This document shows positions 21,500-52,798 of a stretch of 64,000 nucleotides of DNA, in pieces (positions within the stretch are counted from its first letter, which is position 1; the number at the start of each line of letters is the position of its first letter). Below the pieces are notes generated by a model that had not been told where the DNA came from, did not search any database, and saw only the letters and a list, made by a program, of their open reading frames with translations. Origin of the DNA: an uncultured delta proteobacterium (GTDB lineage Bacteria; Desulfobacterota; Binatia; UBA9968); contig CAVSHR010000012.1 of NCBI GenBank assembly GCA_963727625.1, forward strand, positions 512,001 through 576,000, in the 5' to 3' direction. The position numbers were made by a program, and so were the translations under genes.

Positions 21500-21553
21500 T
21501 TGGAGTGTCGGAGCCTACCCATCCTCCCATGACTCCGGACTCCATCACTCCAA
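21500..21553. repeat. Family C periodic inverted repeat (GGAGT/ACTCC units), empty
   Basis: tggagtgtcggag ... gactccggactccatcactcca, about 8 nt after the amidohydrolase stop. Confidence 0.6.
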
Positions 21554-21561
21554 TTTTTTTC

Positions 21562-22560
21562 CTATTGCTTGAACCTCGTGAACACCTGCTCGGCGTTTTT
21601 GTGAAAGACTTTCGCCTTGTCCTCCGCCGTAAGCCACGGGATACTTTCAATGTTAGGCCGCACATCGTCGTACCATTTGCCGGTGCGCGGATCGGTCTTC
21701 GAGCCCGCCCCCGGCCGTTCCGTGCCGAAAAGACAACGTTCGGGGCCGCAGATGCGGAAGAGCAGCTTCAATGACTCGACGTTGTAGAGCGCGCTGTCGA
21801 AATAGAGCTGCTTCAGTCTTTGGTCGAAAGTCTCCGTGTCGTTGGGACCGCGCAGCTGGGAGCGCCAGCGGCCGACTTGATAGGGCACCGAGCCGCCGCC
21901 ATGCGAGATGATCAGCTTCAGCTTGGGAAAATCTTGAAACACTTTGGAGTCGACCAGGGACAGGATCGCAATGCTCTCTTCGGTGATGAAGTGGCCGTGG
22001 AACGACTCGCGCGGATTTTTGCAGCTCGCCCCGTGCACGAGGCCGGGTACGTCCATCTTCACCATCTTCTCGTAAAGAGGATACCAGTATTCGTTGCCCA
22101 TCGCCGGCGTTTGCCCGTCGCCCTCGCCGGGATCGGGGTTGATCATGATGCCGACGAAGCCTAGATCATTGATGCAGCGATCGATTTCTTCGAACGTGTT
22201 TGTCACCGGCACCCCGGCGTTCTGGGGCAGGCCGCCGATGGCGCGAAATTTCTTCGGTTCCATTTTGACCTGCAATGCCAACGCATCATTCACCGCCTGG
22301 CAGTACCAGTGCACGATCTTCTCCGGTTTCGCCGAATGCATCATCGTGTAAGGTCGCGGCGAGATAAACGCGAAATCCGTGCCAACCTCGTCCAAGACTT
22401 CGGAATGTTTATGGCCGTGCCACTTTGCCTCTTGAATATGCTTCTCCGTTACCACGCTGGTGCTGCGCGGGCGATGAAACCCGGCGCTGTTGATCAAACC
22501 GGCTTGAAAGGTCTGGAGCTGCTCGCCGGCAACGATATGGTTGTGAATGTCGATAATCAT
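21562..22560 (-). CDS. Amidohydrolase_2 family, LigJ/LigY-like
   Basis: MIIDIHNH, ISPRP, INPDP, LVHG, ISHGGG, LFGTERPG. Confidence 0.8.
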   Translation of the reverse strand: MIIDIHNHIVAGEQLQTFQAGLINSAGFHRPRSTSVVTEKHIQEAKWHGHKHSEVLDEVGTDFAFISPRPYTMMHSAKPEKIVHWYCQAVNDALALQVKMEPKKFRAIGGLPQNAGVPVTNTFEEIDRCINDLGFVGIMINPDPGEGDGQTPAMGNEYWYPLYEKMVKMDVPGLVHGASCKNPRESFHGHFITEESIAILSLVDSKVFQDFPKLKLIISHGGGSVPYQVGRWRSQLRGPNDTETFDQRLKQLYFDSALYNVESLKLLFRICGPERCLFGTERPGAGSKTDPRTGKWYDDVRPNIESIPWLTAEDKAKVFHKNAEQVFTRFKQ

Positions 22561-22633
22561 GACAAAGTCCTTTCCAACAAAATTGCATCTTACCTATCAG
22601 AGACCGGCGACCGGCGGCAAGACGGGATGAAAC

Positions 22634-22717
22634 CGGAGCTATGGAGTAATGGAGTACCGGAGGGATGGGTTCAGAAACACTTCCCAACACTCGATTACTC
22701 CAACGCTCCATCATTCC
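22634..22717. repeat. Family C periodic inverted repeat (8-nt GGAGTAAT-like units), empty
   Basis: cggagctatggagtaatggagtaccggagggatggg ... cccaacactcgattactccaacgctccatcattccg; overlaps the MFS 3' end. Confidence 0.7.
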
Positions 22718-24023
22718 GTTCCACTCTCCGTGGCGGCCGTAGCAACAAACTCAAAAACGCCGAGGTGATCAGCGCGCAACCGAACAGCGCAAAGGAAACT
22801 CCGTAGCCGCCGGTGGCGTCGAAGAGAAAGCCGAAAAACGGCGGCCCCATGGCAGCGAGCACCTGAGAAATCAGCAAACCCATGCCGCGAATTCTTCCGA
22901 GCGAGCGGCGCCCGAAGTAATTGGCCCATAAGAAATCGGGCAAGACCATATTGCCGCCGAGGCCGATGCCGTAGAGAAAAAATCCGATATAAAGGCAAGC
23001 GAGGTTGCTCGTGGAGATCGCCAGCGCCAGACCGATGCCTTGAATGACAAATCGCAGCATGGCCGCGATGCGGGCGTCCAGTCGCTCGACAAGAAATCCC
23101 CAGACAAGCGGCGAAGCCAACTGCATGGAGGCAATCACGCTCATCACGGTGGCGGCAATCACCGGCGAATGGCCGAGGTCCGTTACGTACGGATACACAT
23201 GCAGGTTGAGGCCGGTCACGCCAATGCTGGAAATGCCGAAGGTCACCACCAGTAGCCAAAAGGTTTTCGTGCGCACCGCCTCGGCGCGCGTCCAGACAGT
23301 GTTCGAAGCCTTAACCAAGTCCTCTTCCCAACTTTTTTTACTTGTTGGGATCGATTTATCTTGGATCGTCGGTTCAGCATCTCCATCCGGACGAAGCCCC
23401 ATATCCTCGGGGGTCCGCCGCACCACAAAAAGCGCCGGCAACACCAACAAGGCCGCCGTCAGAACGCCGAAGACCACCCAAGTTTGGCGCCAACCGAGGG
23501 TCAACAGAAGCCAGGCCGCGACCACCGGCATGCAGACCTTGGCGAAGCCCACGCCCATGCTCGTGAATGCCATTGCACGGCCGCGCCGGCGCACAAACCA
23601 CTGGGAAACGACCACGTTGACGACCATGGAGCCCATCAGCGCATCGCCGAAGGTCACCAACGTCAGACGAATGGCGGCGAATTGACCGAAGCTCTCCACA
23701 TGGCCGAGAATCAGATAGCCCAAGCCGACGATCACCGCGCCGAGCGCCATCAGCACGCGACCGCCGTGGCGGTCCACCAGCGTGCCGACCAGCGGCGCCA
23801 GACCGGCGCCGATCATGGCTTCGCCCGAGCGCAGCAAGGAAAACACGCCGCGGGAAATGCCCATCTCGGCGGTCAGGGGTTTGAGAAAAATACTGAGCGT
23901 GCTGGCGAGCGCGAACGAAGAAGCGACGTTGGCGAGAAAACCTACTCCGACGATATACCAACCGTAGAAAATACCCCGACTCTTCCGCTCCCGCTCCTCG
24001 CGCAACGCTCCTTTCACACCCAC
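22695..24023 (-). CDS. MFS transporter (OFA/MCT-like)
   Basis: FYGWYIV, GTLVDRHG, QWFVRRRGRAM, LGWR, NYFGRRSLGRIRG. Confidence 0.88.
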   Translation of the reverse strand: MGVKGALREERERKSRGIFYGWYIVGVGFLANVASSFALASTLSIFLKPLTAEMGISRGVFSLLRSGEAMIGAGLAPLVGTLVDRHGGRVLMALGAVIVGLGYLILGHVESFGQFAAIRLTLVTFGDALMGSMVVNVVVSQWFVRRRGRAMAFTSMGVGFAKVCMPVVAAWLLLTLGWRQTWVVFGVLTAALLVLPALFVVRRTPEDMGLRPDGDAEPTIQDKSIPTSKKSWEEDLVKASNTVWTRAEAVRTKTFWLLVVTFGISSIGVTGLNLHVYPYVTDLGHSPVIAATVMSVIASMQLASPLVWGFLVERLDARIAAMLRFVIQGIGLALAISTSNLACLYIGFFLYGIGLGGNMVLPDFLWANYFGRRSLGRIRGMGLLISQVLAAMGPPFFGFLFDATGGYGVSFALFGCALITSAFLSLLLRPPRRVERNDGALE

Positions 24024-24124
24024 GCTTTAGCAGGAAAACAGCGGCGCGCGCAATTCAAGCACAGCGATTGAAGATTTTTCTTGAAACCGTAAATGAGAGC
24101 AGTACGGCCGGATATTCCTAATCA

Positions 24125-27371: not shown

Positions 27372-27402
27372 TTTTGAATCCAACAGAATCGGAGAAAAGA
27401 TT

Positions 27403-27481
27403 TCTCCCGCCAAGTCGCTAAGTCAATGAAAAGATCTATGCTCTAAAGCTTTTATTCTTTCCTTAGCGTCTTTGCGGGAGA
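27403..27481. repeat. Family B periodic inverted repeat (9-nt CGCAAAG/CGCTAAG-based units), empty
   Basis: tctcccgccaagtcgctaag ... cttagcgtctttgcgggaga. Confidence 0.75.
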
Positions 27482-27500
27482 TATTTCTTGGCCTATTTCT

Positions 27501-28135: not shown

Positions 28136-28846
28136 TTACGGCAACTTGAATTCGGCCCGCAGCCGCTCCAATGAGGATAACCTCGCGAGCCGCTGCAGGA
28201 CGGTCGTGGTCGGCGGTAAAATGGGAAAGTCGCGGCGATCGACGCGGCTAATCGCCTCTGCCGCGTTTATCCATAGACTGTGGGTGACTTCTTCGGAGCG
28301 GCGCAGCGCCCTCTGCTTGGACGGTTGAGCAGCGATATAAAAGCGCGTATCGAAGCGCATCGAATAAATGTCGGGGGTCACCCAATGATCGAAATAAACC
28401 GCCCGCGTCAGGTCGCAAAAAAGATTTTCCGATTCTAAAAACGCGCTGAAATCGAGTTCCTTGCGCACGATAGCCTGGCGCTTATTCTCAATACGCTGTT
28501 TGGCGGCCTGATCGCTGACCGCGACTTCCTCTCCCGCTTCATTTACGCAGAGCAAAACGCCGACTTCTTCGAACAGCTCGCGCACCACCGCCACCCAATG
28601 GCCGAGCGCTTCGTTCGGTTCGCGGCGGTTGTCCAGAATGCCGCGTGCTTCCTCGCCGGAAAGGCCGCGGCAACGGCGCAACATGGAAGGCGAATAGTCG
28701 GACTCGTGCACCGTGCCACCGGGAAAGACATAAAAGCCGCCGAGAAAACGCATCTCCGGCGGCCGGCGCGTTAAGAGAAGCTCGAAACCGCCCCGCTCAT
28801 CCGGTCGCACGAGCACGACGGTGGAAGCGTAGCGGGGAATTACCAT
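28136..28846 (-). CDS. NUDIX hydrolase (NUDT19-like)
   Basis: VFPGG, VRELFEEVG, WVTP...RFDTRFY, PPT. Confidence 0.88.
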   Translation of the reverse strand: MVIPRYASTVVLVRPDERGGFELLLTRRPPEMRFLGGFYVFPGGTVHESDYSPSMLRRCRGLSGEEARGILDNRREPNEALGHWVAVVRELFEEVGVLLCVNEAGEEVAVSDQAAKQRIENKRQAIVRKELDFSAFLESENLFCDLTRAVYFDHWVTPDIYSMRFDTRFYIAAQPSKQRALRRSEEVTHSLWINAAEAISRVDRRDFPILPPTTTVLQRLARLSSLERLRAEFKLP

Positions 28847-28854
28847 CGGTAAAG

Positions 28855-29000
28855 AATTCCGAAATCCGAAACTCGAAACAAAGTTGAACTTAGAGAAATC
28901 TCAACCTGCGAAAACCCGTAAAACCAATTTCAGTTGAGTTAGTTTGGAAAATTAATTCGTTGGACATTTGAATTGGTTTCGAGTTTCGAAATTCGGATTT
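28855..29000. repeat. Family A periodic inverted repeat (7-nt AAATCCG-like units), empty
   Basis: aattccgaaatccgaaactcgaaac ... gtttcgagtttcgaaattcggattt around an AT-rich spacer. Confidence 0.8.
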
Positions 29001-29021
29001 TGAGTAACGGTTGCCTTCCTC

Positions 29022-30065
29022 CTACATTCTCCCTAACTCGCGCAACAGCTTCTCCCACTTCTCATTTTCCTTATCGTACTGGGTCGCGGACATTCCCGCC
29101 TCGGGATAGTAACGCTTGAAGTCCGGTTTATTGGTGGCGCTGTCGAGACCGAACTTGCCGAGGAATTTTTGTCCCTCAGGGCTTACAAGAAAGTCGGCGA
29201 ACAGCAAGGCCGCATACGGGTGCGGTCGATTGGCCGGCACGGCAACACCGCCCGCGTTGGTCGGCACGACGTCCATCGGCACCCACTTGATCGGCGCGCC
29301 TTTTGCGATCGACACGCGCGAATGGCTGAGAAACACCGTCGGCGACACGCCCACCTCGCCGGAGATCACCATATCGAGCAGCGCCCGACCCGACACCGAA
29401 TGCAAGCTGACCTGTTGCTCCTTGAGTTTCTTGACAAACTCAGCGCCTTTGCTGGCGAGCATGGCGGCGATCACGCGCTTGCCGGTGTCGGTCGTGGAGA
29501 AGCCGATCCTGTCCTTGAGCTCGGGTTTGAGCAGATCTTCGTAGCCCTTCGGCACCGCGCTTCCCTTCACCGAGTTTGTGTTGTACGCAAGCCCGATGTA
29601 GGACTCGCGGTCGGTCATCCAGTAGACCAAACCCTTGTCGGCTTTTTCCTTGGCTTCGTCCGGATAGTGGGCCGAATAGGGAGAATAGTACGGCGTCAGC
29701 AGTTTATATTCCTGCATCAGTTTCAGAGCCGGAAAAGTCGTTTCGATCGTGTCGACCAGAAAGCGCTTGGCCTGAGCTTCCTGCAAAACCCGCTGAATGA
29801 TTGCGTCGCTGTTGCCGCGGTAGACTTCGAGCTTGACGCCGGGGTACTTCGCCGCGAAAACCTTCGGTGCTTGCTTGTTAGGTCCGCCGGTTAGCGAGGT
29901 GTACCACATCAACATCCCTTCTTTCTTCGCTCCCTCATAAAGCATCTTTTCGCGGTCGGGTTTGTTGTACGCGGCCAGCTCGGCCATCGACATGGGTTTT
30001 TCTTGGGACCATACCGGGGATATCCAATTCAGCGCAACAGCCATCATCAATAGCAAAATGCTCAT
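29022..30065 (-). CDS. ABC substrate-binding protein (AfuA/Fe3+-like class)
   Basis: GAKKEG.L.WYTS, YNT, GAPIKW, AALLFADFLVSPEGQ. Confidence 0.8.
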   Translation of the reverse strand: MSILLLMMAVALNWISPVWSQEKPMSMAELAAYNKPDREKMLYEGAKKEGMLMWYTSLTGGPNKQAPKVFAAKYPGVKLEVYRGNSDAIIQRVLQEAQAKRFLVDTIETTFPALKLMQEYKLLTPYYSPYSAHYPDEAKEKADKGLVYWMTDRESYIGLAYNTNSVKGSAVPKGYEDLLKPELKDRIGFSTTDTGKRVIAAMLASKGAEFVKKLKEQQVSLHSVSGRALLDMVISGEVGVSPTVFLSHSRVSIAKGAPIKWVPMDVVPTNAGGVAVPANRPHPYAALLFADFLVSPEGQKFLGKFGLDSATNKPDFKRYYPEAGMSATQYDKENEKWEKLLRELGRM

Positions 30066-31368: not shown

Positions 31369-31954
31369 CGAACAAACTCGTAATCCGAATATCGAAATCC
31401 GAAACAAACCCTCTGAGGTCAAATCCGAAATTCGAAGCACGAAATCCGAAATAGACTGGAAATCCATTAACCGCGTGCTTCAAGCTAGTTTATTTAATTT
31501 ATTCACTCTTTCGCAGAATCGCACCAAATATACCGGTCAACTCCGTTGACTCTCCGACAAGATCAACGCGCAATTTCTCAAGGGCCAACTCACCACCGAT
31601 GTCGATCAACCGCAACCAATAGCGGCTTTCCTCGGCCTCTTTACGACATATTCTGATTCTCATAAGAAAATCTTTCTTGCTTAGCGATTCATTGGCCTCG
31701 ATATAGTTAGCTCCGACCGAACCAGACGCTCGCATTACCCGTTTTGTATCCTCAGTATTTGCCAACGCCTTTGGAATTGTTTTGACAAAAAGGCGAACGA
31801 TTTCCGCAAAATCGAAGGGTCGGTCTTCGAGATCGTATTGTCTGAACCCCAATTCGGCTTTCATGTCTGGTGTTTTGCATTATTGATCTCGGAGCCCGGA
31901 TTCTATTTGGTCATTTGAATTTGTTTCGAATTTCGGAATTCGTGCTTCGGATTT
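31369..31954. mobile_element. Family A inverted-repeat element carrying a four-helix-bundle gene
   Basis: Arms aaatccgaaattcgaagcacgaaatccgaaa (31421-31451, plus a second arm ~31375-31408) and gtttcgaatttcggaattcgtgcttcggattt (31923-31954). Confidence 0.65.
31499..31864 (-). CDS. Four helix bundle protein (23S rRNA IVP / TIGR02436-like)
   Basis: DLEDR..DFA, RASGSVGANYIEANESLSKKDF, KEAEESRYWL. Confidence 0.88.
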   Translation of the reverse strand: MKAELGFRQYDLEDRPFDFAEIVRLFVKTIPKALANTEDTKRVMRASGSVGANYIEANESLSKKDFLMRIRICRKEAEESRYWLRLIDIGGELALEKLRVDLVGESTELTGIFGAILRKSE

Positions 31955-32330: not shown

Positions 32331-32348
32331 AGGACTTCCGATTTTTCC

Positions 32349-32791
32349 TCTCGCAAAGGCGCTAAGGCGCAAAGTTTTAGGAATCCTCGATTCCGTTCAC
32401 CGCGCGGGTTATACCTCGTTTCATCAACGCTTCACCAAAGTTTAGCGGAAATCCCAGCTTGTAACCGGTTAACCGCAGATATGTCAGAAGCTGTTTCTTG
32501 TGAGCTTGGCTGACTTGCTCAACAGATTTTAACTCTATGATAACCTTGTCTTCGACAACTAAATCAGCGCGAAACGCCTCTTCGAAAGTCATCTCCTTGT
32601 AATGGATCGAAATCGGAACTTGCCGTATCACCGAAAGCCCACGTTGTCCTAATTCGTAGGCCAGAATGACTTCATATACGCTTTCCAGCAACCTCGGCCC
32701 AAGCTCCCGATGTACCGCAACAGCCACATCGATAATAATTGTCCCAATTTCATTCTCTGTCATAACTTGGCGTCTTTGCGCCTTTGCGAGA
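32349..32791. mobile_element. Family B inverted-repeat element carrying a GxxExxY gene
   Basis: 26-nt arms tctcgcaaaggcgctaaggcgcaaag and cttggcgtctttgcgcctttgcgaga (23/26 complementary), each 2 nt from the gene ends. Confidence 0.7.
32377..32763 (-). CDS. GxxExxY family protein (PD-(D/E)XK-like)
   Basis: VHRELGPRLLESVYE, FRADLVVEDKVIIELKSVE, QLLTYLRL, LNFG; motif Gly replaced by Arg. Confidence 0.88.
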   Translation of the reverse strand: MTENEIGTIIIDVAVAVHRELGPRLLESVYEVILAYELGQRGLSVIRQVPISIHYKEMTFEEAFRADLVVEDKVIIELKSVEQVSQAHKKQLLTYLRLTGYKLGFPLNFGEALMKRGITRAVNGIEDS

Positions 32792-32799
32792 GAATATTC

Positions 32800-35700
32800 T
32801 TATCCGATCGGCAGAGTGAATGTGAACGTGCTGCCTTTGCCGACTTCGCTTTCCACCCAGATCTTGCCGCCGTGCAGTTCGACGAACCGTTTAGTCAATG
32901 CCAAGCCCAGCCCTGTGCCTTCGCGCTTTTGCGCGTAATTCGATCCGACTTGCCGAAATTCTTCGAAGATCGCTTCCTGGTCTTCCTTGGCGATGCCTAT
33001 TCCGGTATCCGTCACCGAAATAATCGCCGCGCTGTCCCCCACTCTCGCCTCGACTTTGACATCTCCTCCCTCCGGCGTGAACTTTACCGCGTTGGTCAAA
33101 AGGTTGACGAGGATTTGTTTGATCTTGCGCTCGTCGCCAGTGAAATCGCCGAGCCGATCGTCGATCACGCGATCGAGTTTGATCCCATGCCGGCTGGCCC
33201 GCTCACGGATGAGCAAGAGCGCGTTCTCGATCGTATCTGGCAGGTGAAACGTCGTGATCTCCAACTCCATCCGCCCCGCTTCGACCTTGGAAAGATCGAG
33301 GATGTCGTTGATAAGCGAGAGCAGATGGCGCCCGGAAGTTAGAATATCGTCGGTGTATTCGGCTTGTTTTTCGTTCAACTCGCCAAAGAGTTTTTCCTGC
33401 AAGACCTCGGAAAAACCGATGATGGCGTTGAGCGGCGTGCGCAGTTCGTGCGACATGTTGGCGAGAAATTCCGACTTGTGCTGGCTGGCGGCTGCGAGTT
33501 GCTTGCCCTTCTCTTCGATCTCGCGGAACAGCCGCGCGTTGTGGATCGCCAAGGCCGACTGCGTCGCGAAGGTTTGCATCAGGTTCACCACCTCTGGATC
33601 GAACTCTCCGACCTGGCGGCGCCACACCGTCAACCCGCCCATAATTTGCTGCTCGCGCAGGATCGGCACCGTCAAAAGCGAGCGGTATCCGAGGCGGTTC
33701 AGCAACGGTCTCAACCTCGAAGTCGAGCGCTCTTGCTGATCAAAAGTATCGGGGATCTGCACCGGCGCGCGAGTGATCGCCGCTTGCCCCGTGGCGCCCT
33801 CGCCGGCCCTTATCCGAGCTGCTCTAAGCGCCTCGACCGCTTCGCTTTCCATATTGTGGCTCGCCCGCAAATTGAACTCTTGCGCCGCTTCATCATATTC
33901 GTAAATAACCCCGCAATCGGTGCCCGACAGTTCGACCGCCCGCGCGACGATGGTTTCCAGCACCGTTTCAAGATCGAGCGTCGAACTCACCGCTTGGCCG
34001 ACCTCGCTCAGCGCTTTCATCTCCTCGACGGATTCGACCAACTCGCGCGTGCGTTCTTGCAATTCCTTGAACAGCCGCACATTTTCGATAGCGATCACAG
34101 CCTGGTCGGCGAAGGTTTTCAGAAGAGCGATCTGTTTTTCGCTGAATGGCTGAACCTCTCGGCGGTAGATCGTGACCGCTCCGATCAGCATGCTCTCTCG
34201 GAGCATGGGCACATGTAGGGTTGTACGCGCACCTCCAAGCTCTACCGCTGCAACCGTGCCGGGTTGACGCTCCTGATACGCTCTCTCGATTGATATGTCA
34301 GGGATATGAATCGGGCTTCGCTGATGTATGAGTTGTCCAAGCCCCGAACTCGGGCCGGGCCTAATTGGACCCTGCCTCAAGAATTCGTTATAGGCCGGAG
34401 TTGCCCCAACAAGGCCCACAGGTTTGAATTCCTCAGCTTCATATAGGAATAGGAGACCCAAATCCGCATTGCACAGCCGTGTGGCATTGATGAGGATCGT
34501 TTGAAAGACCGGCTCAAGGTTGGTGGGTGAACTACTGATCACGCGCAGGATCTCGCTGGTCGCTGTCTGCTGCTCCAGCGCCTCGGTGATTTGGCGATTG
34601 CGTTCTTCTAATTCTTTGAACAGCCGCACGTTTTCGATGGCGATCACGGCCTGTGATGCGAAGGTCTTGAGAAGTGCGATCTGTTTCTCGGTAAACGGCC
34701 GCACCTCCATCCGGCGAGTTCCAATCACGCCGATTGCGACACTCTCGCGGAGCAACGGGGTGGCAAGCAGGGTTCGATAACCCAACCGGGTTCCCCGGCT
34801 TTCCGGATAATCCGCCGCGACCTCTTGGAAGTCGCGAATGTGAATCGTTTCGCAATCGACAATCGCTCGCCCCTGGTGCGAGTTGCGATTGAGCGGCGTC
34901 TCCGTCCCAAGCGGGCTGCTCGGAGCCGATCCATGGTTGGCGACCTTCCGCAGGCGATCGCCTTCAACCCGCATAAAAATCGCCGCATCCGTCGCCTCAC
35001 AAACCCGCGCCGCGTTCTCGGCCACAGTGTCCAACACCGGCTGAATATCAGTCGGCGAGCTGGCAATGACGCCCAAGATTTCACTGGTCGCCGTCTGCTG
35101 CTCAAGCGACTCCTTCAACTCTTGGAACAACCGCACGTTCTCGATGGCGATAACCGCTTGGTCGGCGAAAGTCTTTAGAAGACTGATTTGCTTGTCAGTG
35201 AATGGATTGACCTCCCCGCGGCGGATGTGAATCACCCCGATTGGTACGCCTTCCCGCAGCAGTGGCGTGGCAAGCGCGGTACCCGCCCCAATTAGGCCGC
35301 GGATACTTGGGAATTCAGTCACGGCTGCAGCGACGTCCTGCACATGAACGGTCTGCCGCTCGATCACCGCTCGCCCGGTGATTGAGCCGTGGTCTACCAG
35401 GCGCTCTGAACCAATTGGCCGTGCCGGCAGTGAACCGCAGTTGGCGACAAGCCTGAGAGAGCTTCCGTCTAGACGCCAGACCAGCGCGTCTTCTGCTCCA
35501 CAAACTCGCAGCGCGTTTTTAGCCACAGTGTCGAGCACCGGCTGGATGTTTGTCGGTGAATTGGCAATGACACCCAAGATTTCGCTCATCGCCGTCTGCT
35601 GTTCCAAAGACTCTTTGAGTTCTTGAAACAGCCGCACGTTCTCGATCGCGATCACAGCTTGATCGGCGAAAGTTTCGAGCAGCTTGATTTGCGCCGGGGT

Positions 35701-38700
35701 AAACGGGCGCACCTCGGTGCGCCGTGAGATCAGGAGTCCAATTAGGTCCCCATGTAGGCGAAGAGGAACAGCCAAAAACACGCGCTTCGGCCCCGGAACT
35801 GCCAATGGGATATCGTTTTGCGTGCGAATATCTGGGATATGAAGCGTGCCATGCTCCCGGACCCAGCGAGCCGGTGGTGAATCAATAGTGATCTCGATAC
35901 CGGGTACGGGTACGGAGCCATAATGAGCCCGGGGGACCAAAGCGTCGCCCTCGCGTAACCGCAGCACCGTATCATCGATCCCACACACGCGCGCCGCGCT
36001 CTCGACGATAGCATCAAGCACCGGCTGCACGTCCGTCGGCGAGCGGCTGATGATGCCGAGCACCTCGGATGTCGCCGTCTGGTGCTCCAGCGCTTCCCTA
36101 AGATCTGCGTTACGCTCCTGAATTTCTTTGAACAGCCGGACGTTTTCAATGGCAATTACAGCCTGGGCCGCAAAGGTTTCGAGCAGTTTAATTTGTCGAT
36201 CAGAAAATGGACGAACCTCGGTTCGCCTGATGTTAATCAAGCCTATAGGTGTACCCTCTCTGAGCATCGGCGTGCTTAAGAATGTCCGTGCTCCCGAGGA
36301 CCCTGCCATATCAGGAAATTCACTCTTCACGGCTTCGACGATATCGTTCACTAGGATCGTTTTTCCGGTAAGAATTGCTCGGCCTGCAGGGTGTCCTAAG
36401 GTCGTGCGCACAAACTCGGGCGCTGGTGCAGGTCCGAAGGATGCCACCCGTCGATGGCCGTCTCCCTCGACCAGACGAATCTGCGCGTCCGTTGCCTCAC
36501 AAAGTCGGGCGGCATTCTCTGCGACGACATCCAACACCGGCTGAATATCAGTCGGCGAGCTGGCGATAACGCCTAAAATCTCGCTCGTCGCAGTCTGCTG
36601 CTCCAACGATTCCTTTAGCTCTTGGAACAGCCGCACGTTTTCGATCGCGATGACCGCCTGGTCAGCGAAGGTTTCAAGAAGTTTGATCTGCGCTGGGGTG
36701 AAGGGACGCACCTCAATGCGCCGTGCAACCAGGACTCCAATGAGTTCCCCATGTAGGCGAAGGGGAACGGACAAAAACACGCGTTTCGGCCCCGGAACTA
36801 AAAATGGGATATCGCTTTTCGTGCGAATATCAGGGATGTGAAGCGTGCCATGCTCCCGGACCCATCGGGCCGGTGGGGAATCAATAGTGATCTCGATACC
36901 GGGTACGGGTACGGAACCATAATGGGCCCGGGAGATCAAAGCGTTCCCCTCGCGTAACCGCAGCATCGTATCATCTATCCCACAAACCCGCGCGGCGCTC
37001 TCGACGATGGCGTCGAGCACCGGCTGCACGTCCGTCGGCGAACGGCTGATGATGCCGAGCACTTCAGATGTCGCGGTCTGATGCTCCAGGGCTTCGCGAA
37101 GTTCGGCGTTACGATCCCCAAGCTCACGGAACAAGCGCACGTTCTCGATGGCGATGACCGCTTGATCGGCGAAGGTCTTTAGAAGAGCTATCTGCTTCTC
37201 GGTGAAAGGCCGGACCTCCGTGCGGCGAATACCGATCGCGCCAATCGCCACACCTTCGCGCAGCAGCGGTGTGCCGAGCATGGTGTGAATACCTCGCTGC
37301 TTTGCGCGATCTTGTTCCTCTGGATATTCGCCGGGAAGCGCGACAATGTCGACAACATGAATCGTCTGGCCGTCGGCAACCGCTCGTCCGTTCAACGAGT
37401 CGCGCGAGAGAGGCGTTTCAAATCCAATCGGACTCCCCGGAACCGACCCGTAGGTGGCGACCTTTCGAAGGCGAGAACTGTCCACGATCATGAAGATATT
37501 GGCGTCATTCGCTCCACAAATTTGCGCCGCATTTCTAGCGACGGTGTCCAGGACCGGCTGAATATCCGTCGGCGAACTGGCGATGACGCCTAAAATCTCG
37601 CTCGTCGCTGTCTGCTGCTCCAACGACTCCTTGAGCTCGTTGAACAACCGTACGTTCTCGATGGCGATCACCGCTTGATCAGCGAAGGTTTTGAGGAGAT
37701 CTATCTGTTTCTCGGTGAATGGATTGACCACCGTACGACGCATAAAGATCACACCAATTGCCATCCCTTCGCGCTGCAGCGGCGCGGCAAGCACCGTTCG
37801 AATGCCGCCTCGTTCGGTGCTGGCTTGAGACTCGGGGAACTCGGTTGCGTTCAGAGCCATCAAATCGTCAATGTGAACGACCCGGCGATCAATCACGGCA
37901 CGCCCGACTACTGAACGACGGTCGATTGGCCGGGGTGAAACGTCAGGCTCGAATGGCCCGTAATGCGCACGCATGGCTAAGACGTCGCCTTCAATGAGTC
38001 GAATAACCGCATCATCCGCACCGCATACTCGCGCCGCGCTGGCTGCTACTTCGTCCAAGACCGGCTGAATATCCGTCGGCGAACTGGTGATGACGCGTAG
38101 AATCTCGCCCGTCGCGGTCTGTTGCTCTAAGGCCTCGGTCAAATCGCGGTTGCGTTCCTGCAATTCTTTGAACAGCCGCACGTTCTCGATGGCGATGACA
38201 GCCTGGTCGGCGAAGGTTTTCAGCAAGGCAATCTGCTTGTCGGAAAAGGGGCGGACCTCCAAGCGTCGGATCAAAATCGCGCCGATCGGCGCGCCCTCGC
38301 GCAGCAGCGGCGTCGCCAGGGTCGTGCGGTGACCCGTCTGTTGCTGGTAACCCTTGATTTCCGGATATTCGCCGTCAACTTCCGCGGCCAGATCGTGGAC
38401 GTGAATGGTTTGACGGTCGATCATCGCCCGAGCCGCGGGAGATTGGCGGTTCATAGGTATATGGCCCGCCGGTATTAGCGGTCCGTAGGATGCCGCCCGG
38501 TGCGCGAGATCGTTCTCAAGGCGAAAAATCTGCGCATCGAATGACTCGCACAGCCGCGCCGCGCTTTCCGCAACGGCGTCGAGCACCGGCTGCACATCGG
38601 TGGGTGAGCGGCTGATGATGCCGAGCACCTCGGCCGTCGCTGTCTGATGCTCCAGCGCCTCGCGCAACTCCGCGTTACGGTCACCGAGTTCTTTGAACAA

Positions 38701-39804
38701 GCGCACGTTTTCTATGGCGATAACGGCTTGATCGGCGAAGATCTTGACGAGCGCGATTTGCTTCTCCGAAAATGGACGCACTTCCTTGCGTCGGACAATG
38801 ATCACCCCGATCGGATCGCCTGCGCGCAATAAAGGCACGCCAAGCACACTTCGAATGCCTATGGTCACCGGTCCCAGGGAAAAATCCACTTCGGGCGCTT
38901 GCACGTCAGGAACATGGATAGTCTGGCGGTCGAGCACGACGCGGCCGGAAAGGTTGCGCCGATCCGCGATCGATTCCTCGCCGATACGCGCCGTCGGAAT
39001 CAGACCGGTCGAGGCCGCGCGTCTGATGATATTCCCGGTAACCCGGTGAATAGTCGCTTCGTCGGCATCACACAATCGCCTGGCATTTTCGACGACAGCA
39101 TCCAGCACCGGCTGAATATCCGTCGGCGAACTGGCGATGACGCTTAAAATCTCGCTCGTCGCCGTCTGTTGCTCCAATGATTCCTTCAGCTCGTTGAACA
39201 GCCGCACGTTCTCGATGGCGATGACCGCTTCGTCGGCAAAACTCTCGAGCAGTTTTATTTGTTTGTCTGTGAAAGGGCGGACTTCCGTGCGCCGGATGTT
39301 AATCACACCGAGAGGCACACCGTCGCACATAAGCGGCGTGGCAAGCGCGGTTCTAATGCCGGTAGCATTTTGGACAGTCCGGTATTCTGGAAACTCCGTT
39401 TCAATTTCTTCCGCGATGTCATGTATGTGAACCGTTTCCCGATCGATGACAGCTCGGCCCACCGGAGTCCCGCGAGTAATGCTCCGCATTCCAATGGCTG
39501 TCGTCGGCATTGACCCATATACCGCCATACGTTGCTGAACATCACCCTCAACGCGAAAAATCAGAGCATCGGCAGCATCACACAACCGAGCAGCATTTTC
39601 CGCAATCGTATCCATCACGGACTGAAGGTCGGTTGGCGTGCGTGCGATCACGCGCAGGATCTCACTCATTGCCGCGCGCTGCTCCTCACCGTCGCGAATT
39701 TCTTGCGCTTGCGCGGCGATGGTCTTCTTCAGCTTCGAGATCGAATTCGCCGGGGACGCCGCGCGCGGTTTTGATTTGGTGGTCTTTGAGATCTTCTTAG
39801 CCAT
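32800..39804 (-). CDS. Cytoplasmic histidine kinase with 12 tandem GAF domains
   Basis: Eleven [15 protein letters not shown] module ends plus [15 protein letters not shown], then [31 protein letters not shown]. Confidence 0.93.
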
Positions 39805-39842
39805 TCGGACACATAAGACTAAACCAGCTATATACAATGTAA

Positions 39843-40004
39843 AAATCCGAAATCCGAATATCGAAATCGGAAATAAAGCAGAGCCAAATAAACCTCAAAT
39901 CCAGAAAATCCAAAACGCTGCCTTCTAACCTTCCCGTTTGGAGCATCGTCGTCGCTTTGTTTTTCATCATTTTGAATTTGTTGCGGATTTCGAGTTTCGG
40001 ATTT
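39843..40004. repeat. Family A periodic inverted repeat, empty
   Basis: aaatccgaaatccgaatatcgaaatcggaaa ... ttgcggatttcgagtttcggattt. Confidence 0.8.
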
Positions 40005-40262
40005 GACTTCACTCAGGGTTCTAGAAAACCTTCCGGCGGAGCGGAATAAAGGTCGGATGTCACATTGGTCACACCCGGCACACTTTTTACTAGCCTTACG
40101 ACTTTGTCTTCCAAGCCACGATCGACTCTGCCCTTGACGTAAATGTGGCCACCTTCGGCGCGAACTTCGAGTGCCAATCCTCCTACGTTGGGCGCTGCAA
40201 ATAACATGGCATGGACCCGAGACCCAAGCGCGAAGTCATGGAAAGCCTGGTTGGACTCGGGA

Positions 40263-40887
40263 GTGAATAACCACCGCCTTAAAGGCGGTGGCATCGAATA
40301 ACGGACTGAAAGTCCTGGGTTCCGGCTACAAGCCGGCTTAAAGTTCCCGCCCCCAATGGGCGGCTGTAGACGGTCTTAACCGTCTACTTTGAAATCATCG
40401 TCACGATCATGATTCTGATTCGATATATATTCCGCGATCACCTCGTCGGTCACATTCCCGCTACTGCAGCAGAAGTATCCCCGTGCCCACAGATGCCGAC
40501 CCCAAAACTGCTTCTGCAAATGCGGAAATTCTCCCATCAACTTGTACGAACTCTTCCCCTTCAACCATTGGATCAACCGACTGATTGTCACTTGCGGCGG
40601 TATCGACACGAACAGATGCAGATGGTCCTTCGCCACATGTCCCTTCAGGATCGTTACTTCGTGTTGCCCGCAGATCTCACGGATTATGTCTCTTACTCGC
40701 GTCGCCACTTCCCCCGTCAACGCTGCCCGATGGTATTTGGTCGTCCATACCAGATGCAAATGTATCTCGAATACCGTGTGTGCTCCGCGTCGATACTCCT
40801 TCATCCGCACACACTACCACAGTGTCACAAAAACTTGCTAAAGCCGTCGCCTAAAGGCGAGGGCTTCAACCCTCCCAGAGTGGGACA
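40263..40887 (-). mobile_element. IS200/IS605 family element (tnpA only), 625 bp
   Basis: Subterminal hairpins aagccgtcgcctaaaggcgagggctt and ccaccgccttaaaggcggtgg; TCAC at both junctions on the minus strand. Confidence 0.9.
40376..40810 (-). CDS. tnpA: Y1 HUH transposase
   Basis: HLVWTTKY, DHLHL, LKGKSS, LWARGYF, EYISNQ. Confidence 0.95.
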   Translation of the reverse strand: MRMKEYRRGAHTVFEIHLHLVWTTKYHRAALTGEVATRVRDIIREICGQHEVTILKGHVAKDHLHLFVSIPPQVTISRLIQWLKGKSSYKLMGEFPHLQKQFWGRHLWARGYFCCSSGNVTDEVIAEYISNQNHDRDDDFKVDG

Positions 40888-41529
40888 GTGAGCTGATACT
40901 CTTCGAGCTTCGCGGCCTCCAGAATCAGATGTTTCGCCCCTTCTCGGCGCATCGTGCTCATATTGAGAATCAGATCATAACGACTAGGATCGCGCCAATC
41001 CGCGCCAAACATCGCCATAAGCCGGCGACTGCGGGCTTTATCGACCTCTTCTATATAGTGGCGCGCCGCGACGTCAGTCAGATTTTGTCGTGACCGGACT
41101 TGTCCAATGCGAAATTCGATTGGCGCAGTTAAAAGTACCTTCAGCACGTGGCCGATACCGGCCAAAAGCTCATGACCCACATGGCCGTGGTAAATCAACT
41201 TTCCGTCATGGGCCAGCTCGCACAGCGCGGCTTGGAGAGCTATCCGGTAGGGCCGCAGATCGAGCAGGAGACGCTCCCACCAGTGCGGGCCTTTTTCGAG
41301 GATCTCGTTGAGTTTTGCTTGGGGAATACCATAGCGACGGCTCGCTTCCACGAGCAACTCGCGCCCAACGCAACGATAACCGAGAGCTTGGGCCACAGTC
41401 CCGGCCAATTCCTGACCTTCGCCGGAAGCACCCTGATAGATTGTGATGATCGGCATGCCAGCTACTCTCCTAACCTCTAAAAGCTACCAACCTCCCCGCG
41501 TGAAAATCTGAAACAAACCCACAGATGCT

Positions 41530-41694
41530 AAATCCGAAATTCGAAGCACGAAATCCGAAACAAACTAAAATCAACTGAATCCTAAATTCAAATATCAAAA
41601 CTCGATCTGGTCGATAACGCTTGGCACATTCTAATTGTTTTGTATTTCATGTTTTGAAATTGTTTCGGATTTCGAAATTCGTGCTTCGAAATTT
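41530..41694. repeat. Family A periodic inverted repeat, empty
   Basis: aaatccgaaattcgaagcacgaaatccgaaac ... gtttcggatttcgaaattcgtgcttcgaaattt. Confidence 0.85.
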
Positions 41695-43798: not shown

Positions 43799-43987
43799 AG
43801 AAAAAGACCGGGATGAGAAAAAGCCGCGGGCGCACGAAAGCAAGGAAGAGGTGCAATTGTGGCGTTATGAGAGGCGCGCTCGGGGGTTGAGTTTCTTTTA
43901 CGCCAGTCGGTTGCCGGGCGTCAAGGAATGGTTTCGGAGGTTGTGAGGCGTCAAAGGTTAGGGGTTAGGCAAGCCGGAAAACATCAC

Positions 43988-44075
43988 TCGCGCAAAGAGT
44001 GCTAAGGACGTTAAGGAAACACGATTTACAGGTACGGTGGCTGCTCCTTTGCGACCTTCGCCTACTTCGGGCGCG
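43988..44075. repeat. Degenerate family B inverted repeat, empty
   Basis: tcgcgcaaagagtgctaaggacgttaagg ... cctttgcgaccttcgcctacttcgggcgcgg. Confidence 0.55.
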
Positions 44076-44103
44076 GACATTTATATCTGGAGAGGTTGAT
44101 TCC

Positions 44104-44406
44104 CCCGCAAAGGCGCAAAGACGCCAAGTTAACAAAGCCCACGGAACAAAGAACTTATTTCATTAGACTCGGAGTCGAGTCTGATGAGCTCTGCAGATCG
44201 GCAGTGGCGCTTCCGATAATCATGATAAAAGGAACCGATGGTTCAGCGGTCCCGTTCACTCCCTGCGCGCCCAAAACATTCTTTTTTTCTCTGGGGGCCG
44301 CGGCAAACCAGGAAAACTACTCTGCTCTGGTCGGTTTACCCAAGCGCTCATTGGGTCGATCTGCTCGACACCGATACCCTACTTTGCACCTTGGCGACTT
44401 TGCGGG
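44104..44406. repeat. Family B arm pair enclosing an ATPase gene fragment
   Basis: cccgcaaaggcgcaaagacgccaag ... ctttgcaccttggcgactttgcggg. Confidence 0.7.
44238..44381 (+). pseudogene. N-terminal fragment of AAA_14/DUF4143-type ATPase
   Basis: SFFLWGPRQTRKTTLL (degenerate Walker A), WVDLL; similarity ends at the family B arm. Confidence 0.65.
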
Positions 44407-44508
44407 AGAAAATCCGAATCCTAGAGAAAAAATTCTCGTGCAAAGATGCAGGGTATATGGACCGCGAGGTTTGACTGCTCCGGACAGATGGACTAACCTT
44501 AGTCCACT

Positions 44509-44748
44509 ATGACTAAGGTGAATATCCATCAGGCGAAGACACAATTTTCCCGGCTGGTCGACCTGGCCGCGAGCGGAGAGGAAATTGTTATCGCAAAATC
44601 TGGTAAACCCGTGGCTCGGTTAGTCCCCTACAAGCAGAAAGGCGCAGTGCGCCGGCCGGGAAGCCTGCGCGGCAAGATTCGGATCAAGAGAAATTTCGAC
44701 GAAACACTTCCGAAAGAGCTGTTGGCTTCGTTCGAAGGAAAGTCGTAA
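44509..44748 (+). CDS. vapB: Phd/YefM family antitoxin
   Basis: VNIHQAKTQFSRLVD...GEEIVIAKSGKPVARLVP. Confidence 0.9.
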   Translation: MTKVNIHQAKTQFSRLVDLAASGEEIVIAKSGKPVARLVPYKQKGAVRRPGSLRGKIRIKRNFDETLPKELLASFEGKS

Positions 44749-44751
44749 GCG

Positions 44752-45147
44752 GTGCGCGTGCTGCTCGACACTCACGTCCTCCTCTGGTGGTTCTCCGACG
44801 ACCGCAAGCTTGCGAAGGACGCGCGGGCTATCATTGCCAATCCCGACAACGACGTGCTCGTGAGCGCGGCGTCGGCTTGGGAAATATCGATCAAAGCGGC
44901 GCTAGGTCGGCTCGAAATTGAATTGGATGACCTGGAAGATGCAATCTTAAAAAACGGTTTTCGGCCGCTACCGATCGGGTTGCGCCATGCCGTAACTGCC
45001 GGTCGTCTGCCCAATATACACCGTGATCCCTTCGATCGGATGCTCGTTGCTCAGGCCAGTATCGAGGAACTGCGAGTGGTTTCTCACGACCGGGTGTTCG
45101 AGCGTTACGGACTCAAGGATGGGGGATTGCCACCGATCATAGTGTGA
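44752..45147 (+). CDS. vapC: PIN-domain toxin
   Basis: LLDTHVLLW, SAASAWEISIK, HRDPFDRMLVAQA. Confidence 0.92.
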   Translation: MRVLLDTHVLLWWFSDDRKLAKDARAIIANPDNDVLVSAASAWEISIKAALGRLEIELDDLEDAILKNGFRPLPIGLRHAVTAGRLPNIHRDPFDRMLVAQASIEELRVVSHDRVFERYGLKDGGLPPIIV

Positions 45148-45159
45148 ATCGTACCGAAA

Positions 45160-45240
45160 CTTTGCGCCTTGGCGTCTTCGCGGCAGAATATTCTTTTCCC
45201 GGATTCAGATGATCTCCCGCCAGGGCGCAAAGACGCCAAG
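45160..45240. repeat. Two family B arms back to back
   Basis: ctttgcgccttggcgtcttcgcggcagaatattct then cccgccagggcgcaaagacgccaag. Confidence 0.7.
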
Positions 45241-45424
45241 GTAGGAATTAACCCAAAACCGACAATAAAAACGGAAGTCCATCATCCTGAATGAATCAAT
45301 GCGTGAGCAGTTCAAAACTTCACTGATTGTGAGCAACTCGATGGACCGGAGAATTGTTAAAATACCAATGGTAAAGTTCCATGCAATTGCCAAATTATTG
45401 TCGGTTTAGGGTTAACGATTTCTT

Positions 45425-49081: not shown

Positions 49082-49128
49082 CTTGGGTCAACTATTTGCT
49101 TTAATCGCTTCGGGTTATTTTAAAAGTC

Positions 49129-50747: not shown

Positions 50748-50755
50748 CGAATCTC

Positions 50756-50869: not shown

Positions 50870-51120
50870 AATTCCCTCCGTCTTCGCTCTTCACGCATAA
50901 AAGTCCGGCCATCTTAAAACGGACATGGTGCCGGCGGCAAGAGCTGGTCCCATAGTGGGCTGGTTCATTTTCGCTAAACGTTCTCGGTTTGATCAGGATG
51001 ACAAACTGGCAAGCTATCATTTCGAGCTCTTCGGGGACGCTCAGGGTTGACTCCGCGAGGAATCTTTCTTCTTGCGCAAGATCGCCTTGGAACCGAACTG
51101 AACAACTACCGGGTGCGTTG

Positions 51121-51681: not shown

Positions 51682-51760
51682 ACCTCCAATAAAAAATGTT
51701 AGTTGAGATTTTATAAGGTGCGGATGGCGGCGACGTCAAGCAGGGTCGAAAATGATTCGT

Positions 51761-52149
51761 AAGAAAGTTCAAGGCTTCAAGGTTCAAGGTCGGATCTTAG
51801 GCCAGTAGACCCGTGGGATGGGTTGAGCGCCCCGGTGCCCATTTTCTCCCATCCACCGTTACAACGATGAGTATCGTCGCAAAGCGCCACCTCCCGTCGT
51901 AGGCGGCGAGCGCACCCTATGACTCATTCCTGAAACGGCAGGCGAATCGGGCAAGATTTCTCGCGGAAGCCACGGCGAGCATCGCAATTAGGCTCACAAT
52001 AATGAAGTATTGCGCCCGTAGCCCGTAACAAAGCGAGGGATCTCGAACGACCCGACGCGCACCACTGGGATTTTTCCGGTTGAACCTTTGAACTCTTGAA
52101 CCTTGAACGAATCAAAGTCTTAGACCAATGGAACGATTTGAACTTTCTT
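51761..52149. repeat. Family D periodic inverted repeat (GTTCAAG/CTTGAAC units) with internal REP-like relic
   Basis: aagaaagttcaaggcttcaaggttcaagg ... ttgaacctttgaactcttgaaccttgaac ... ttgaactttctt (12-bp perfect outer IR). Confidence 0.7.
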
Positions 52150-52150
52150 C

Positions 52151-52639
52151 CTAATTGAGATACCCGCTGCCGCCGCCTTCGGCTTCTGCCAGCGCGAGAT
52201 TGTGCCGCACTGCATCGAGATGCGGATGAATTTCCAGCGCGCGGCGAAAACAGACCGCCGCTTCGCGGGTTTCGTTTAACGTCATATGGCAAAGCCCCTG
52301 GCCCGACGCCGCGCCGAAGTGATTGAGATTGCGCGCCAGCGTTTGCCGGCAGTCGGCGATCGAGCCGCGAAAGTCCCGGCGCAGGTAACGCACGGTCGCG
52401 CGCTTGTTCCAGCCTTCGGCGAACTCCGGTTGCCCCTCGATCACGCGGGTAAAAAACTCTTCCGACTCTTCGAGCCGGCGATTCTGCAGCGCCTCGACCC
52501 CGGCGCGAAACAACCGATCGGTCTCAGGATCCCCCGAACGGTACCAGCCGCTCCAGAGAATCGCCTCCGCCGTCGCGGCAAGCTCGGGATCGTCGCCTTT
52601 CAATGCTTCAAGCGCTTCTTTCTCGTTGGTAGGATACAT
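52151..52639 (-). CDS. TPR repeat protein
   Basis: PEFAEGWNKRATVRY, HFGAASGQG, ALEIHP. Confidence 0.85.
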   Translation of the reverse strand: MYPTNEKEALEALKGDDPELAATAEAILWSGWYRSGDPETDRLFRAGVEALQNRRLEESEEFFTRVIEGQPEFAEGWNKRATVRYLRRDFRGSIADCRQTLARNLNHFGAASGQGLCHMTLNETREAAVCFRRALEIHPHLDAVRHNLALAEAEGGGSGYLN

Positions 52640-52653
52640 TTGTTGATGAAACC

Positions 52654-52798
52654 CGTTCCAAGTTCAACGTTTAAAGTTCAAGGTCCGGTCCAAGAAACGC
52701 GCCTGTGAGCTCCCTCGGCTTACCCAACCGTACTCCTTAGTTTCAAAGCTTGGACCCAAACCGTCTGGCTTTAAACGTTGGACCTGGAACCTTGAACG
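52654..52798. repeat. Family D periodic inverted repeat, empty
   Basis: cgttccaagttcaacgtttaaagttcaagg ... ctttaaacgttggacctggaaccttgaacg. Confidence 0.7.

Follow-up and report, generated by a model that had tools for sequence, protein, structure and literature searches.

Among described systems, the elements reported here have close counterparts in the intervening sequences (IVSs) of bacterial 23S rRNA genes, which are regarded as selfish, horizontally spread inserts that are cut out by RNase III (PMC4990558, PMC11270868). The Coxiella IVS harbors a gene of one of the families found in our elements, has tandem GACAGAT heptamers (two or three copies, varying between strains) upstream of this open reading frame (ORF), and is excised by RNase III (PMC4990558), and PF05635 ORFs also occur in rRNA inserts of the candidate phyla radiation (CPR) (PMC11270868). 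The IVSs of Coxiella, Leptospira and others share with our elements a PF05635 gene as cargo, an inverted-repeat stem that encloses the ORF and, in Coxiella, heptamers beside it. The elements in question lie in a 64,000-nucleotide stretch of DNA, hereafter called the window, that spans positions 512001 to 576000 of contig C12 (CAVSHR010000012.1) in genome G000, a 6.6 Mb assembly of 15 contigs from an uncultured delta proteobacterium (GCA_963727625.1). Each consists of two inverted arms, which carry about three to five copies of a family-specific unit of 7 to 9 nucleotides plus short non-periodic end segments, and the arms enclose either a short loop (the empty form) or one small gene of family PF05635 or PF13366. 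It seems probable that they are selfish cassettes, resembling either MITEs (miniature inverted-repeat transposable elements) or IVSs, that live in transcribed spacers. Unlike 23S IVSs, they occupy spacers between protein genes, come in many arm families per genome with empty copies far outnumbering filled ones, and have a second cargo family, GxxExxY. The general design, seen locally here, appears to be undescribed; no paper was found that links PF05635 or PF13366 to flanking unit arrays outside rRNA (subscription journals, supplements and NCBIfam/TIGRFAM curator notes lay outside the search).

Tandem heptamers are also over-represented in the intergenic regions of other bacteria, with GGGAATC described in Xanthomonas, GGGGA(C/T)T in Nostoc and Anabaena, and short tandemly repeated repetitive (STRR) sequences in Calothrix. 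In the Xanthomonas study, 70 to 75 convergent pairs of GGGAATC arrays form inverted repeats that lie mostly between co-oriented ORFs and nearer to the upstream one, their length and sequence vary by species, and both the Xanthomonas and the Nostoc heptamers are treated as G-quadruplex-forming simple repeats (PMC4692102). The searched text of that paper contains neither ‘23S’ nor ‘hypothetical protein’, and no link to a cargo gene is made there. The units of our elements differ in that they take many sequences, are mostly not prone to form G-quadruplexes, and are tied to two gene families.

An earlier note on this DNA, made from its letters alone, had listed about 13 elements with arms of short tandem units, and all 13 were recovered, each at the position it gave or a few bases away (Table 1). 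The window was subjected to an inverted-repeat search that returned 63 inverted pairs, and the 25 longest of these include the arms at 41530/41650, 32348/32764, 31421/31924, 28855/28973, 44100/44381, 39850/39977, 52655/52769 and 22635/22689. The unit families at the 13 sites are A (AAATCCG-like, 7 nt), B (CGCNAAGN, 8 nt), C (GGAGTnnT, 8 nt) and D (GTTCAAG(G), 7-8 nt); the period of B is 8 rather than the 9 nucleotides given earlier. Likewise, the B arms reported at 45160 are present, but they are two orphan or tandem ends and not a single hairpin; tandem B arrays at one junction (J6, see below) in the congeners G007 and G018 have a comparable arrangement. Family B elements are bounded by a terminal inverted repeat (TIR) of about 40 nucleotides, TCGGA..TCTCCCGC(NAAGNCGC)n. 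Across this genome and its congeners, the first unit of family B arms seems to be more often GCAAAG in 5′ arms and GCCAAG in the complement of 3′ arms, and if this difference is real, the two ends are distinguishable. No Rfam covariance model reached its gathering score in the 64-kb window, and ARAGORN reported no tRNA gene in it.

Table 1. Unit-array elements of the window and the genes they enclose (window positions; z scores are relative to dinucleotide shuffles)
Feature	Position	Strand	Remarks
Family C empty hairpin	21500..21556		Between beta-propeller gene 20198-21463(-) and amidohydrolase gene 21562-22560(-); -25.2 kcal/mol, z -4.91, 0/200 shuffles as good
Family C empty hairpin	22635..22709		Between amidohydrolase gene and MFS gene 22695-24023(-); 3′ end overlaps MFS stop region; 21-nt arms, 86%; z -5.02
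Family B empty element, CGCNAAGN 8-nt units	27400..27484		z -5.55; junction J3
Family A empty element	28855..29000		Between SBP gene 29022-30065(-) and NUDIX gene 28136-28846(-); 28-nt arms, 86%; z -4.34; right end matches filled A at 89% identity over 36 nt
Family A element with cargo	31369..31954		Arms 31386-31452 and 31920-31954; junction J5
Cargo gene, four-helix-bundle ‘23S rRNA intervening sequence protein’ (IVP), 121 aa	31499..31864	-	PF05635 E 4.7e-10; TIGR02436 E 1.3e-14
Family B element with cargo	32348..32792		29-nt arms, 90%; arms adjoin the start and the stop codon (0 nt on either side); junction J6
Cargo gene, GxxExxY protein with predicted PD-(D/E)XK nuclease fold, 128 aa	32377..32763	-	PF13366 E 2.8e-39; TIGR04256 E 2.7e-39
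Family A empty element	39843..40006		Between BON gene 40013-40294(-) and 2345-aa histidine kinase gene; 28-nt arms, 82%
Family A empty element	41490..41693		Left 57 nt 89% identical to filled A; z -2.78
Family B degenerate hairpin	43988..44070		Divergent intergenic region; z -1.35 (weak)
Family B element, 251-nt loop	44100..44410		30-nt arms, 80%; ORF 44096-44512 without family match
Family B orphan arms, 3′-type then 5′-type	45157..45242		45157-45182 and 45213-45242; order as where two tandem elements meet
Family D element, GTTCAAG[G] 7-8-nt units, loop about 290 nt	51768..52108		Loop ORF 51924-52292 matches 0 families
Family D empty element	52655..52790		Between TPR gene 52151-52639(-) and hydrolase gene 52801-53481(-); 22-nt arms, 91%; -57.3 kcal/mol, z -4.54

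The two cargo genes of the window belong to PF05635/TIGR02436 and PF13366/TIGR04256, as the earlier guesses of a four-helix bundle and a GxxExxY protein had implied. Periodic flanking inverted repeats (IRs), called at an IR score of at least 12 unless stated otherwise, are present at 22 of 30 GxxExxY loci and 27 of 30 IVP loci in the genus; among the GxxExxY misses, two lie at contig ends and two are hidden by an over-long ORF call, yet have arms that are visible in the junction comparison below. These genus counts include an unpublished genome, G005 (loci L025, L046 and L070), and without it they become 21 of 28 and 26 of 29, with no claim depending on G005 alone. In the protein tree, all seven proteins at least 70% identical to the GxxExxY protein of the window have CGCAAAG arms, the CACGAAG, CACAGAG and CACGAAA arm types each form their own GxxExxY clade, and the IVP tree has AGGC-, AGGAGTA/GTGAGGG- and GTTCAA-type clades. 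In both trees the arm unit goes with the clade of the protein, and arms and cargo are inherited together and diverge together.

This arrangement extends far beyond the genus. Of 151 genomes sampled in the phylum, 86 have PF05635, with arms at 25 of 32 ORFs over a G+C range of 33 to 69%, and 45 have PF13366, with arms at 16 of 27 loci compared to 1 of 81 shuffles; by reading, the GxxExxY arms of the phylum carry three copies of a CAC(A/G)GA(G/A)-like core at a spacing of 8 to 10 nucleotides. A profile built from 21 IVP proteins of the phylum yielded 80 loci, 79 of them with both flanks, from more than 15 phyla (Acidobacteriota, Bacteroidota, Pseudomonadota, Planctomycetota, Nitrospirota, Chloroflexota, Bacillota, Desulfobacterota, Elusimicrobiota, Ignavibacteriota, Chlorobiota, three CPR lineages, Bipolaricaulota and a Methanobacteriota metagenome-assembled genome). 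Flanking IRs were called around 56 of these 79 IVP genes and in only 2 of 237 shuffled flanks, and 45 of the 56 have a period of 7 nucleotides. The sequence of the unit differs almost everywhere across these cassettes, and the arm upstream of the gene has more G than C in 66 of 75 cassettes. The Methanobacteriota locus (L123, JAYEII010000117.1) has a PF05635 gene and a 14-nucleotide arm of 7-nucleotide period with a score of 14, and the cassette design may reach archaea, or this contig may be misbinned. Within the genus, cargo genes are co-oriented with both neighbors at 41 of the 48 loci where both neighbors could be called and opposite to both at one, with 12 of 60 loci at contig edges; these loci include recurring orthologous junctions and are not independent.

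The IVP profile matches PDB entries 2gsc and 2rld, each of which has five chains; 2gsc is XCC0516 of Xanthomonas campestris, from the genus that carries GGGAATC arrays. We take the IVS protein to be a member of an Avd-like pentamer family, and Avd of the diversity-generating retroelements (DGRs) belongs to the same four-helix-bundle family as IVP; a DGR review reportedly names PF05635. The likeness to Avd extends to the five chains per entry of the solved IVP homologues, but neither a reverse transcriptase nor a template/variable repeat pair lies beside the cassettes, and the seven RVT_1 matches of the genome are elsewhere. For the GxxExxY protein, no solved relative was found by sequence. Its AlphaFold2 model has a pLDDT of 94.3, and a Foldseek search with this model gave weak likeness only, with no match at E of 0.001 or below; the top matches are all PD-(D/E)XK nucleases, with Cas4 SSO0001 and Hjc, a resolvase of Holliday junctions, at the head (E 1.4e-3 to 1.8e-3). 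Residues D67, E77 and K79 are invariant in 37 GxxExxY sequences. The PF13366 match, the model and the alignment place the GxxExxY cargo in the PD-(D/E)XK nuclease superfamily, with the D...(D/E)xK motif.

Small ORFs that are co-oriented with their surroundings and bounded by imperfect inverted repeats also bring to mind integron attC cassettes, which carry promoterless small ORFs and whose imperfect inverted repeats vary in sequence while keeping their design. Our elements differ from these in that they lack both an integrase and an attI site with its array, have repeats on each side of the ORF, and are scattered among conserved syntenic host genes.

A genome-wide census indicates where these elements reside. 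Pairing unit tracts 5 to 1500 nucleotides apart gave 61 pairs in this genome compared to 7 at a control distance of 5005 to 6500 nucleotides, a census that started from inverted repeats gave 44 elements compared to 4 in its control, and the union of both contains at least 50 short elements. The scan recovers about ten unit families, rather than the four proposed earlier. Short elements span 49 to 261 nucleotides (median 85.5), and among the 50 examined, 40 are located between co-oriented genes, 4 between convergent and 4 between divergent genes, and 2 inside genes. The 40 of 48 classifiable copies exceed expectation at p 5.8e-4 relative to the 60.5% of intergenic bases that lie between co-oriented genes, and at 0.037 relative to 71% of intergenic regions. 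The elements nearly fill their spacers, with medians of 6 nucleotides from the upstream stop codon to the 5′ arm and 17.5 nucleotides from the 3′ arm to the next start codon, distances that are approximate because genome-wide genes were called with a home-made ORF scorer. The cassettes thus sit mostly at operon junctions just after stop codons, as the earlier note had proposed.

A location just after stop codons, together with stems that contain G and C, is also what one expects of ordinary intrinsic terminators or attenuators, an alternative that had been raised from the start. We consider this very improbable. None of 40 elements has at least seven T residues in the 12 nucleotides after the 3′ arm on the sense strand, which argues that the elements are not terminators. 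Moreover, stems of 20 to 40 nucleotides enclose loops of tens to hundreds of nucleotides, the elements lie inside co-directional gene strings a short distance before the next start, and some of them enclose whole genes.

This genome has 11 PF05635 and 2 PF13366 matches, and the 13 cargo genes comprise 7 with a flanking periodic IR score of at least 13, 4 with weak scores (10 to 11) and 2 with none. The units around them vary by copy and include AGGCAAT, GTTCAAnnn, GGGCATA, ATTTTGG, GGAGTGAT, AAATCCG, CGCAAAGG and CACGGAG. The idea that each family pairs an autonomous with a non-autonomous form is partly borne out: empty A copies match the filled A element over 30 to 57 nucleotides at each end and nowhere in the gene. 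The window holds no cargo copy of C or D. That of C is an IVP gene with an in-frame TGA (C4:953928, C numbers being contigs of the assembly named), and for the 7-8-nucleotide D type the sole cargo copy belongs to another species. B is abundant in some congeners that have no B-clade gene (see below).

Several dense assemblages were recorded. A long co-directional gene string at C11:198000-236500 holds four cassettes, all on the plus strand, with IVP genes at 202320, 208367 and 215395 and a GxxExxY gene at 233018, and arrays of the GGGCATA unit occur in both orientations at C11 202184-204099. In the congener G018, at least eight PF05635 matches, some fragmentary, fall within 23 kb (C13:1773837-1796930), where IVP cassettes or remnants of them are densely clustered.

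The occupancy of individual spacers was compared, as the earlier note had suggested, at 10 loci from 9 congeners that share the gene string and have about 70 to 85% DNA identity in genes. Absent, empty, filled and replaced states were all found among these species-level relatives. Junction J3 measures 158 nucleotides with its B element here and 30 to 40 nucleotides in all four relatives that cover it (G006, G018, G004 and G014). At J4 to J6, seen in 6 to 12 congener loci, the arms are of A, B, GTGAGGG, CACGAAGG or ATTTTGG type, in empty or cargo-bearing elements that may be nested or in tandem. J5 has family A arms with the IVP gene in G018 and G004, as here, whereas 8 of 10 congener loci have 126 to 210 nucleotides without a gene and with B and/or GTGAGGG/GTAAGGG-type arms, some of them nested. 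The most variable junction is J6, where B arms with the gene occur in G006, G007, G012, G014 and G018, one to three extra empty B copies stand in tandem in the last four of these, G008 and G003 have a different GxxExxY paralogue flanked by CACGGAGG or CACGAAGG arms, the gene is missing in G004 (148 nucleotides), and G011 has an ATTTTGG-type hairpin. Across 31 congeners, the B-arm pattern GCAAAGRCGCNAAG has 2 to 533 matches per genome and its reversed control 0 to 3. The B-clade GxxExxY gene (at least 69% identity) is present in 10 of the 31, and all 11 congeners that have fewer than 15 B matches lack it. Junction occupancy and copy number change quickly between species.

In many respects these properties are those of MITEs such as Correia/nemis, ERIC and RUP, which are likewise short, multi-copy, intergenic and bounded by TIRs, form nested and tandem arrays, show burst-like differences in copy number, and have empty copies that relate to a longer copy as deletion derivatives. 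Correia hairpins are, in addition, processed by RNase III. The elements described here differ from MITEs in having no DDE or other transposase partner, TIRs that are arrays of 7- to 9-nucleotide units and, as far as relatives this distant allow, no target-site duplication seen. As the earlier note had held, no transposase is encoded inside the elements; a MITE is moved by a transposase-encoding autonomous element with the same ends, but the longer copies here encode only PF05635 or PF13366 proteins, of about 120 amino acids.

The missing enzyme might be sought among Y1 transposases, either REP-associated tyrosine transposases (RAYTs), named for repetitive extragenic palindromic (REP) sequences, or IS200-like enzymes, which would move REP-type elements as single-stranded DNA hairpins and could be supplied by the IS200-family gene of the window (40376-40810) and the RAYT-like genes of the genome. 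Y1 enzymes do act on DNA hairpins, the model for REP-associated tyrosine transposases matches 35 times in the genome (4 of these above the cut-off), and the IS200-family gene sits between two A elements. This route is nevertheless less likely, and we regard it as quite improbable. RAYT-like genes whose position was established lie between their own non-periodic inverted repeats, for example GTCAGGCCTGAGTATTGA 1010 nucleotides apart, or GGGGACGCGAACCTT types, and not between periodic arms. The window gene scores 152.8 bits with the IS200 model NF033573 and 30.6 bits with the REP transposase model (cut-off 80), and is itself a multi-copy insertion sequence (IS) with 95 to 98% identity between copies. 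A single arm, by reading of the window elements, is not a palindrome, unlike a REP. Finally, PF05635 genes are enclosed in this anatomy across many phyla, independently of any Y1 gene, although those 3.3-kb loci were not scanned for Y1 genes.

A stretch of about 630 nucleotides with the IS200/IS605-family gene, which is on the minus strand, recurs at C2:229456-230075 (98%) and C4:851114-851650 (95%), and this is an active-looking IS. The RAYT-like ORFs, of about 315 amino acids (e.g. C8:235729-241887 and C4:223281-224290), constitute a separate, abundant Y1 element family, and the GTCAGGCCTGAGTATTGA repeats that flank several of them are 18 nucleotides long.

Folding predictions brought a further explanation into view. 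When eight short window elements were each compared with 200 dinucleotide shuffles, six (21496-21560, 22630-22715, 27395-27482, 28853-29002, 41537-41686 and 52652-52793) had z scores of -2.8 to -5.6 with no shuffle as good. The fold at 43985-44075 is weak (Table 1), and 39850-39999 gave z -0.11 on a 150-nucleotide stretch in which the arms that the inverted-repeat search finds are cut short. Strong predicted stems (mean about -36 kcal/mol) just after stop codons in co-directional gene strings could be RNA elements selected by the host, such as operon-internal mRNA stabilizers, processing sites or insulators, with periodic arms arisen by slippage in place and the small genes as passengers. REP sequences and bacterial interspersed mosaic elements (BIMEs), which have a role in mRNA stability, would be the precedent, being likewise intergenic, often within operons, hairpin-forming and high in copy number. 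Furthermore, J4 to J6 carry some hairpin in most congeners despite differing arm families, as if the junction could ‘need’ one.

We nonetheless consider selection by the host unlikely. The non-periodic end sequences are common to dozens of loci and species, and slippage in place does not produce these. Copy number varies more than 100-fold between congeners, J3 lacks the element in every relative that covers it, and cargo and arms co-diverge. The elements also differ in design from REPs themselves: a REP is one short imperfect palindrome, whereas two separated arrays pair here across a loop or a gene, and RAYT-like genes in this genome are flanked by different sequences that are not periodic. 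Selection on RNA structure would also be expected to leave a G:U strand asymmetry and covariation at variable positions, neither of which was observed. No G:U strand bias was found in the short elements. The arms are physically predicted to pair, as the earlier note had stated, but there is no sign that the pairing itself is selected. Complementarity in register compared to one unit off is 0.90 versus 0.77 for 48 cargo cassettes and 0.88 versus 0.80 for 17 empty elements; since the in-register alignment was chosen as the best, this gap is partly selection bias, and a clear excess exists in the cargo set only. From their sequences, the empty elements resemble inverted arrays built on a degenerate family motif, similar to protein-bound transposon ends, rather than stems kept by compensatory change.

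The reading of these elements as selfish cassettes in transcribed spacers must itself be set against several observations that weigh against it. Fold energy favors the sense and antisense strands equally (20:20; means -36.3 and -36.5 kcal/mol) and thus names no strand. Arm covariation at variable unit positions is not above that of permuted pairs, in what are small samples of 38, 20 and 11 pairs: 82 of 228 such positions are complementary in B arms compared to a permutation mean of 88, 62 of 180 compared to 65 in GTTCAA-9 arms (best register 0.494 versus 0.531), and 42 of 99 compared to 46 in GGAGT-8 arms (best register 0.576 versus 0.568), and two more families, with only 4 and 2 arm pairs, are too few to judge. 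Seven congeners have 56 to 379 B-arm matches and no B-clade GxxExxY gene, which means that a resident master is not needed for abundance and speaks against the cargo being required for it in cis or in trans. Gain and loss are not separable at any single junction, as the relatives are species-level. No direct repeat that would represent a target-site duplication is evident at J3 or at 18 B elements, for which the relatives are too distant to provide exact empty sites. Neither the junction comparison nor the B-element ends revealed a mobility event or a mobilizing enzyme. Lastly, none of 199 cargo loci matches an rRNA operon, such that the link to IVSs consists of shared cargo and shared anatomy; the 23S gene of this genome (a match of 3005 nucleotides to a 2925-position model) contains no periodic inverted repeat.

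If the elements are selfish cassettes, they would spread by copy-and-paste or gene conversion through a factor that recognizes unit arrays, and the cargo proteins would be the obvious candidates for this factor. Insertion into a spacer would be harmless, leaving the flanking cistrons intact, and this would allow a cassette to persist. It would be co-transcribed with the operon, and its arms could then pair into a stem of about 20 to 35 base pairs. By analogy, this stem would probably be cut by RNase III, as is documented for 23S IVSs with the same gene family (PMC4990558).

Some features of the window and the genome were noted apart from these elements, or were considered as elements and set aside. 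An extra element at 58205 was rejected, as its partner arm was not found, and the ORFs in the long loops at 44130-44380 and 51790-52075, where cargo remnants were sought, match no Pfam or NCBIfam family. A Phd/YefM antitoxin and PIN-domain toxin pair at 44509-45147(+) was rejected as B-element cargo because relatives have the pair beside the kinase gene with only 51 to 67 nucleotides between them (junction J9; G007 and G003), where about 600 nucleotides of B elements intervene here. At 45248-45415, a non-periodic inverted repeat, TTAACCCAAAACCGACAATAA, has 21-nucleotide arms that are 95% complementary and 126 nucleotides apart. The same ends occur 1.5 kb apart at C4:1088459-1089982 and 160 nucleotides apart at C7:12424-12583, and the probable explanation is a classical MITE together with its IS. 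The histidine kinase gene at 32800-39837(-) encodes 12 GAF domains and has many partial paralogues in this genome and its relatives, and most genes within 20-54 kb of the window are on the minus strand. Near-perfect palindromes of 0.7 to 1.6 kb at C2:815938-817577 and C7:206841-207877, one of them at a contig end, resemble assembly fold-backs rather than biology.

A broader proposal, which we put forward tentatively and hold to be rather doubtful, is that PF05635 pentamers and GxxExxY nucleases are sequence-specific readers of their own flanking arrays, with one subunit per 7- to 8-nucleotide unit and each lineage co-evolving with its array. They would then constitute a transposase-less mobile or addictive cassette system across bacteria and some archaea, whose products might include rRNA IVSs, the STRR heptamers of cyanobacteria, the GGGAATC repeats of Xanthomonas and the empty hairpins described here. 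PF05635 and GxxExxY are large families that are annotated in thousands of genomes and have no known function, and the rule that the gene lies between inverted arrays of a lineage-specific 7- to 8-nucleotide unit would give both proteins a concrete, testable ligand. Such a rule would tie together rRNA IVSs, intergenic heptamer repeats and the species-variable hairpins at shared junctions, and would explain a good share of the fast-changing operon spacer DNA in this genus. It would also mark spacers by the hundreds in each genome as parasitic DNA instead of regulatory sequence, with consequences for how genomes are annotated and how operons are read.

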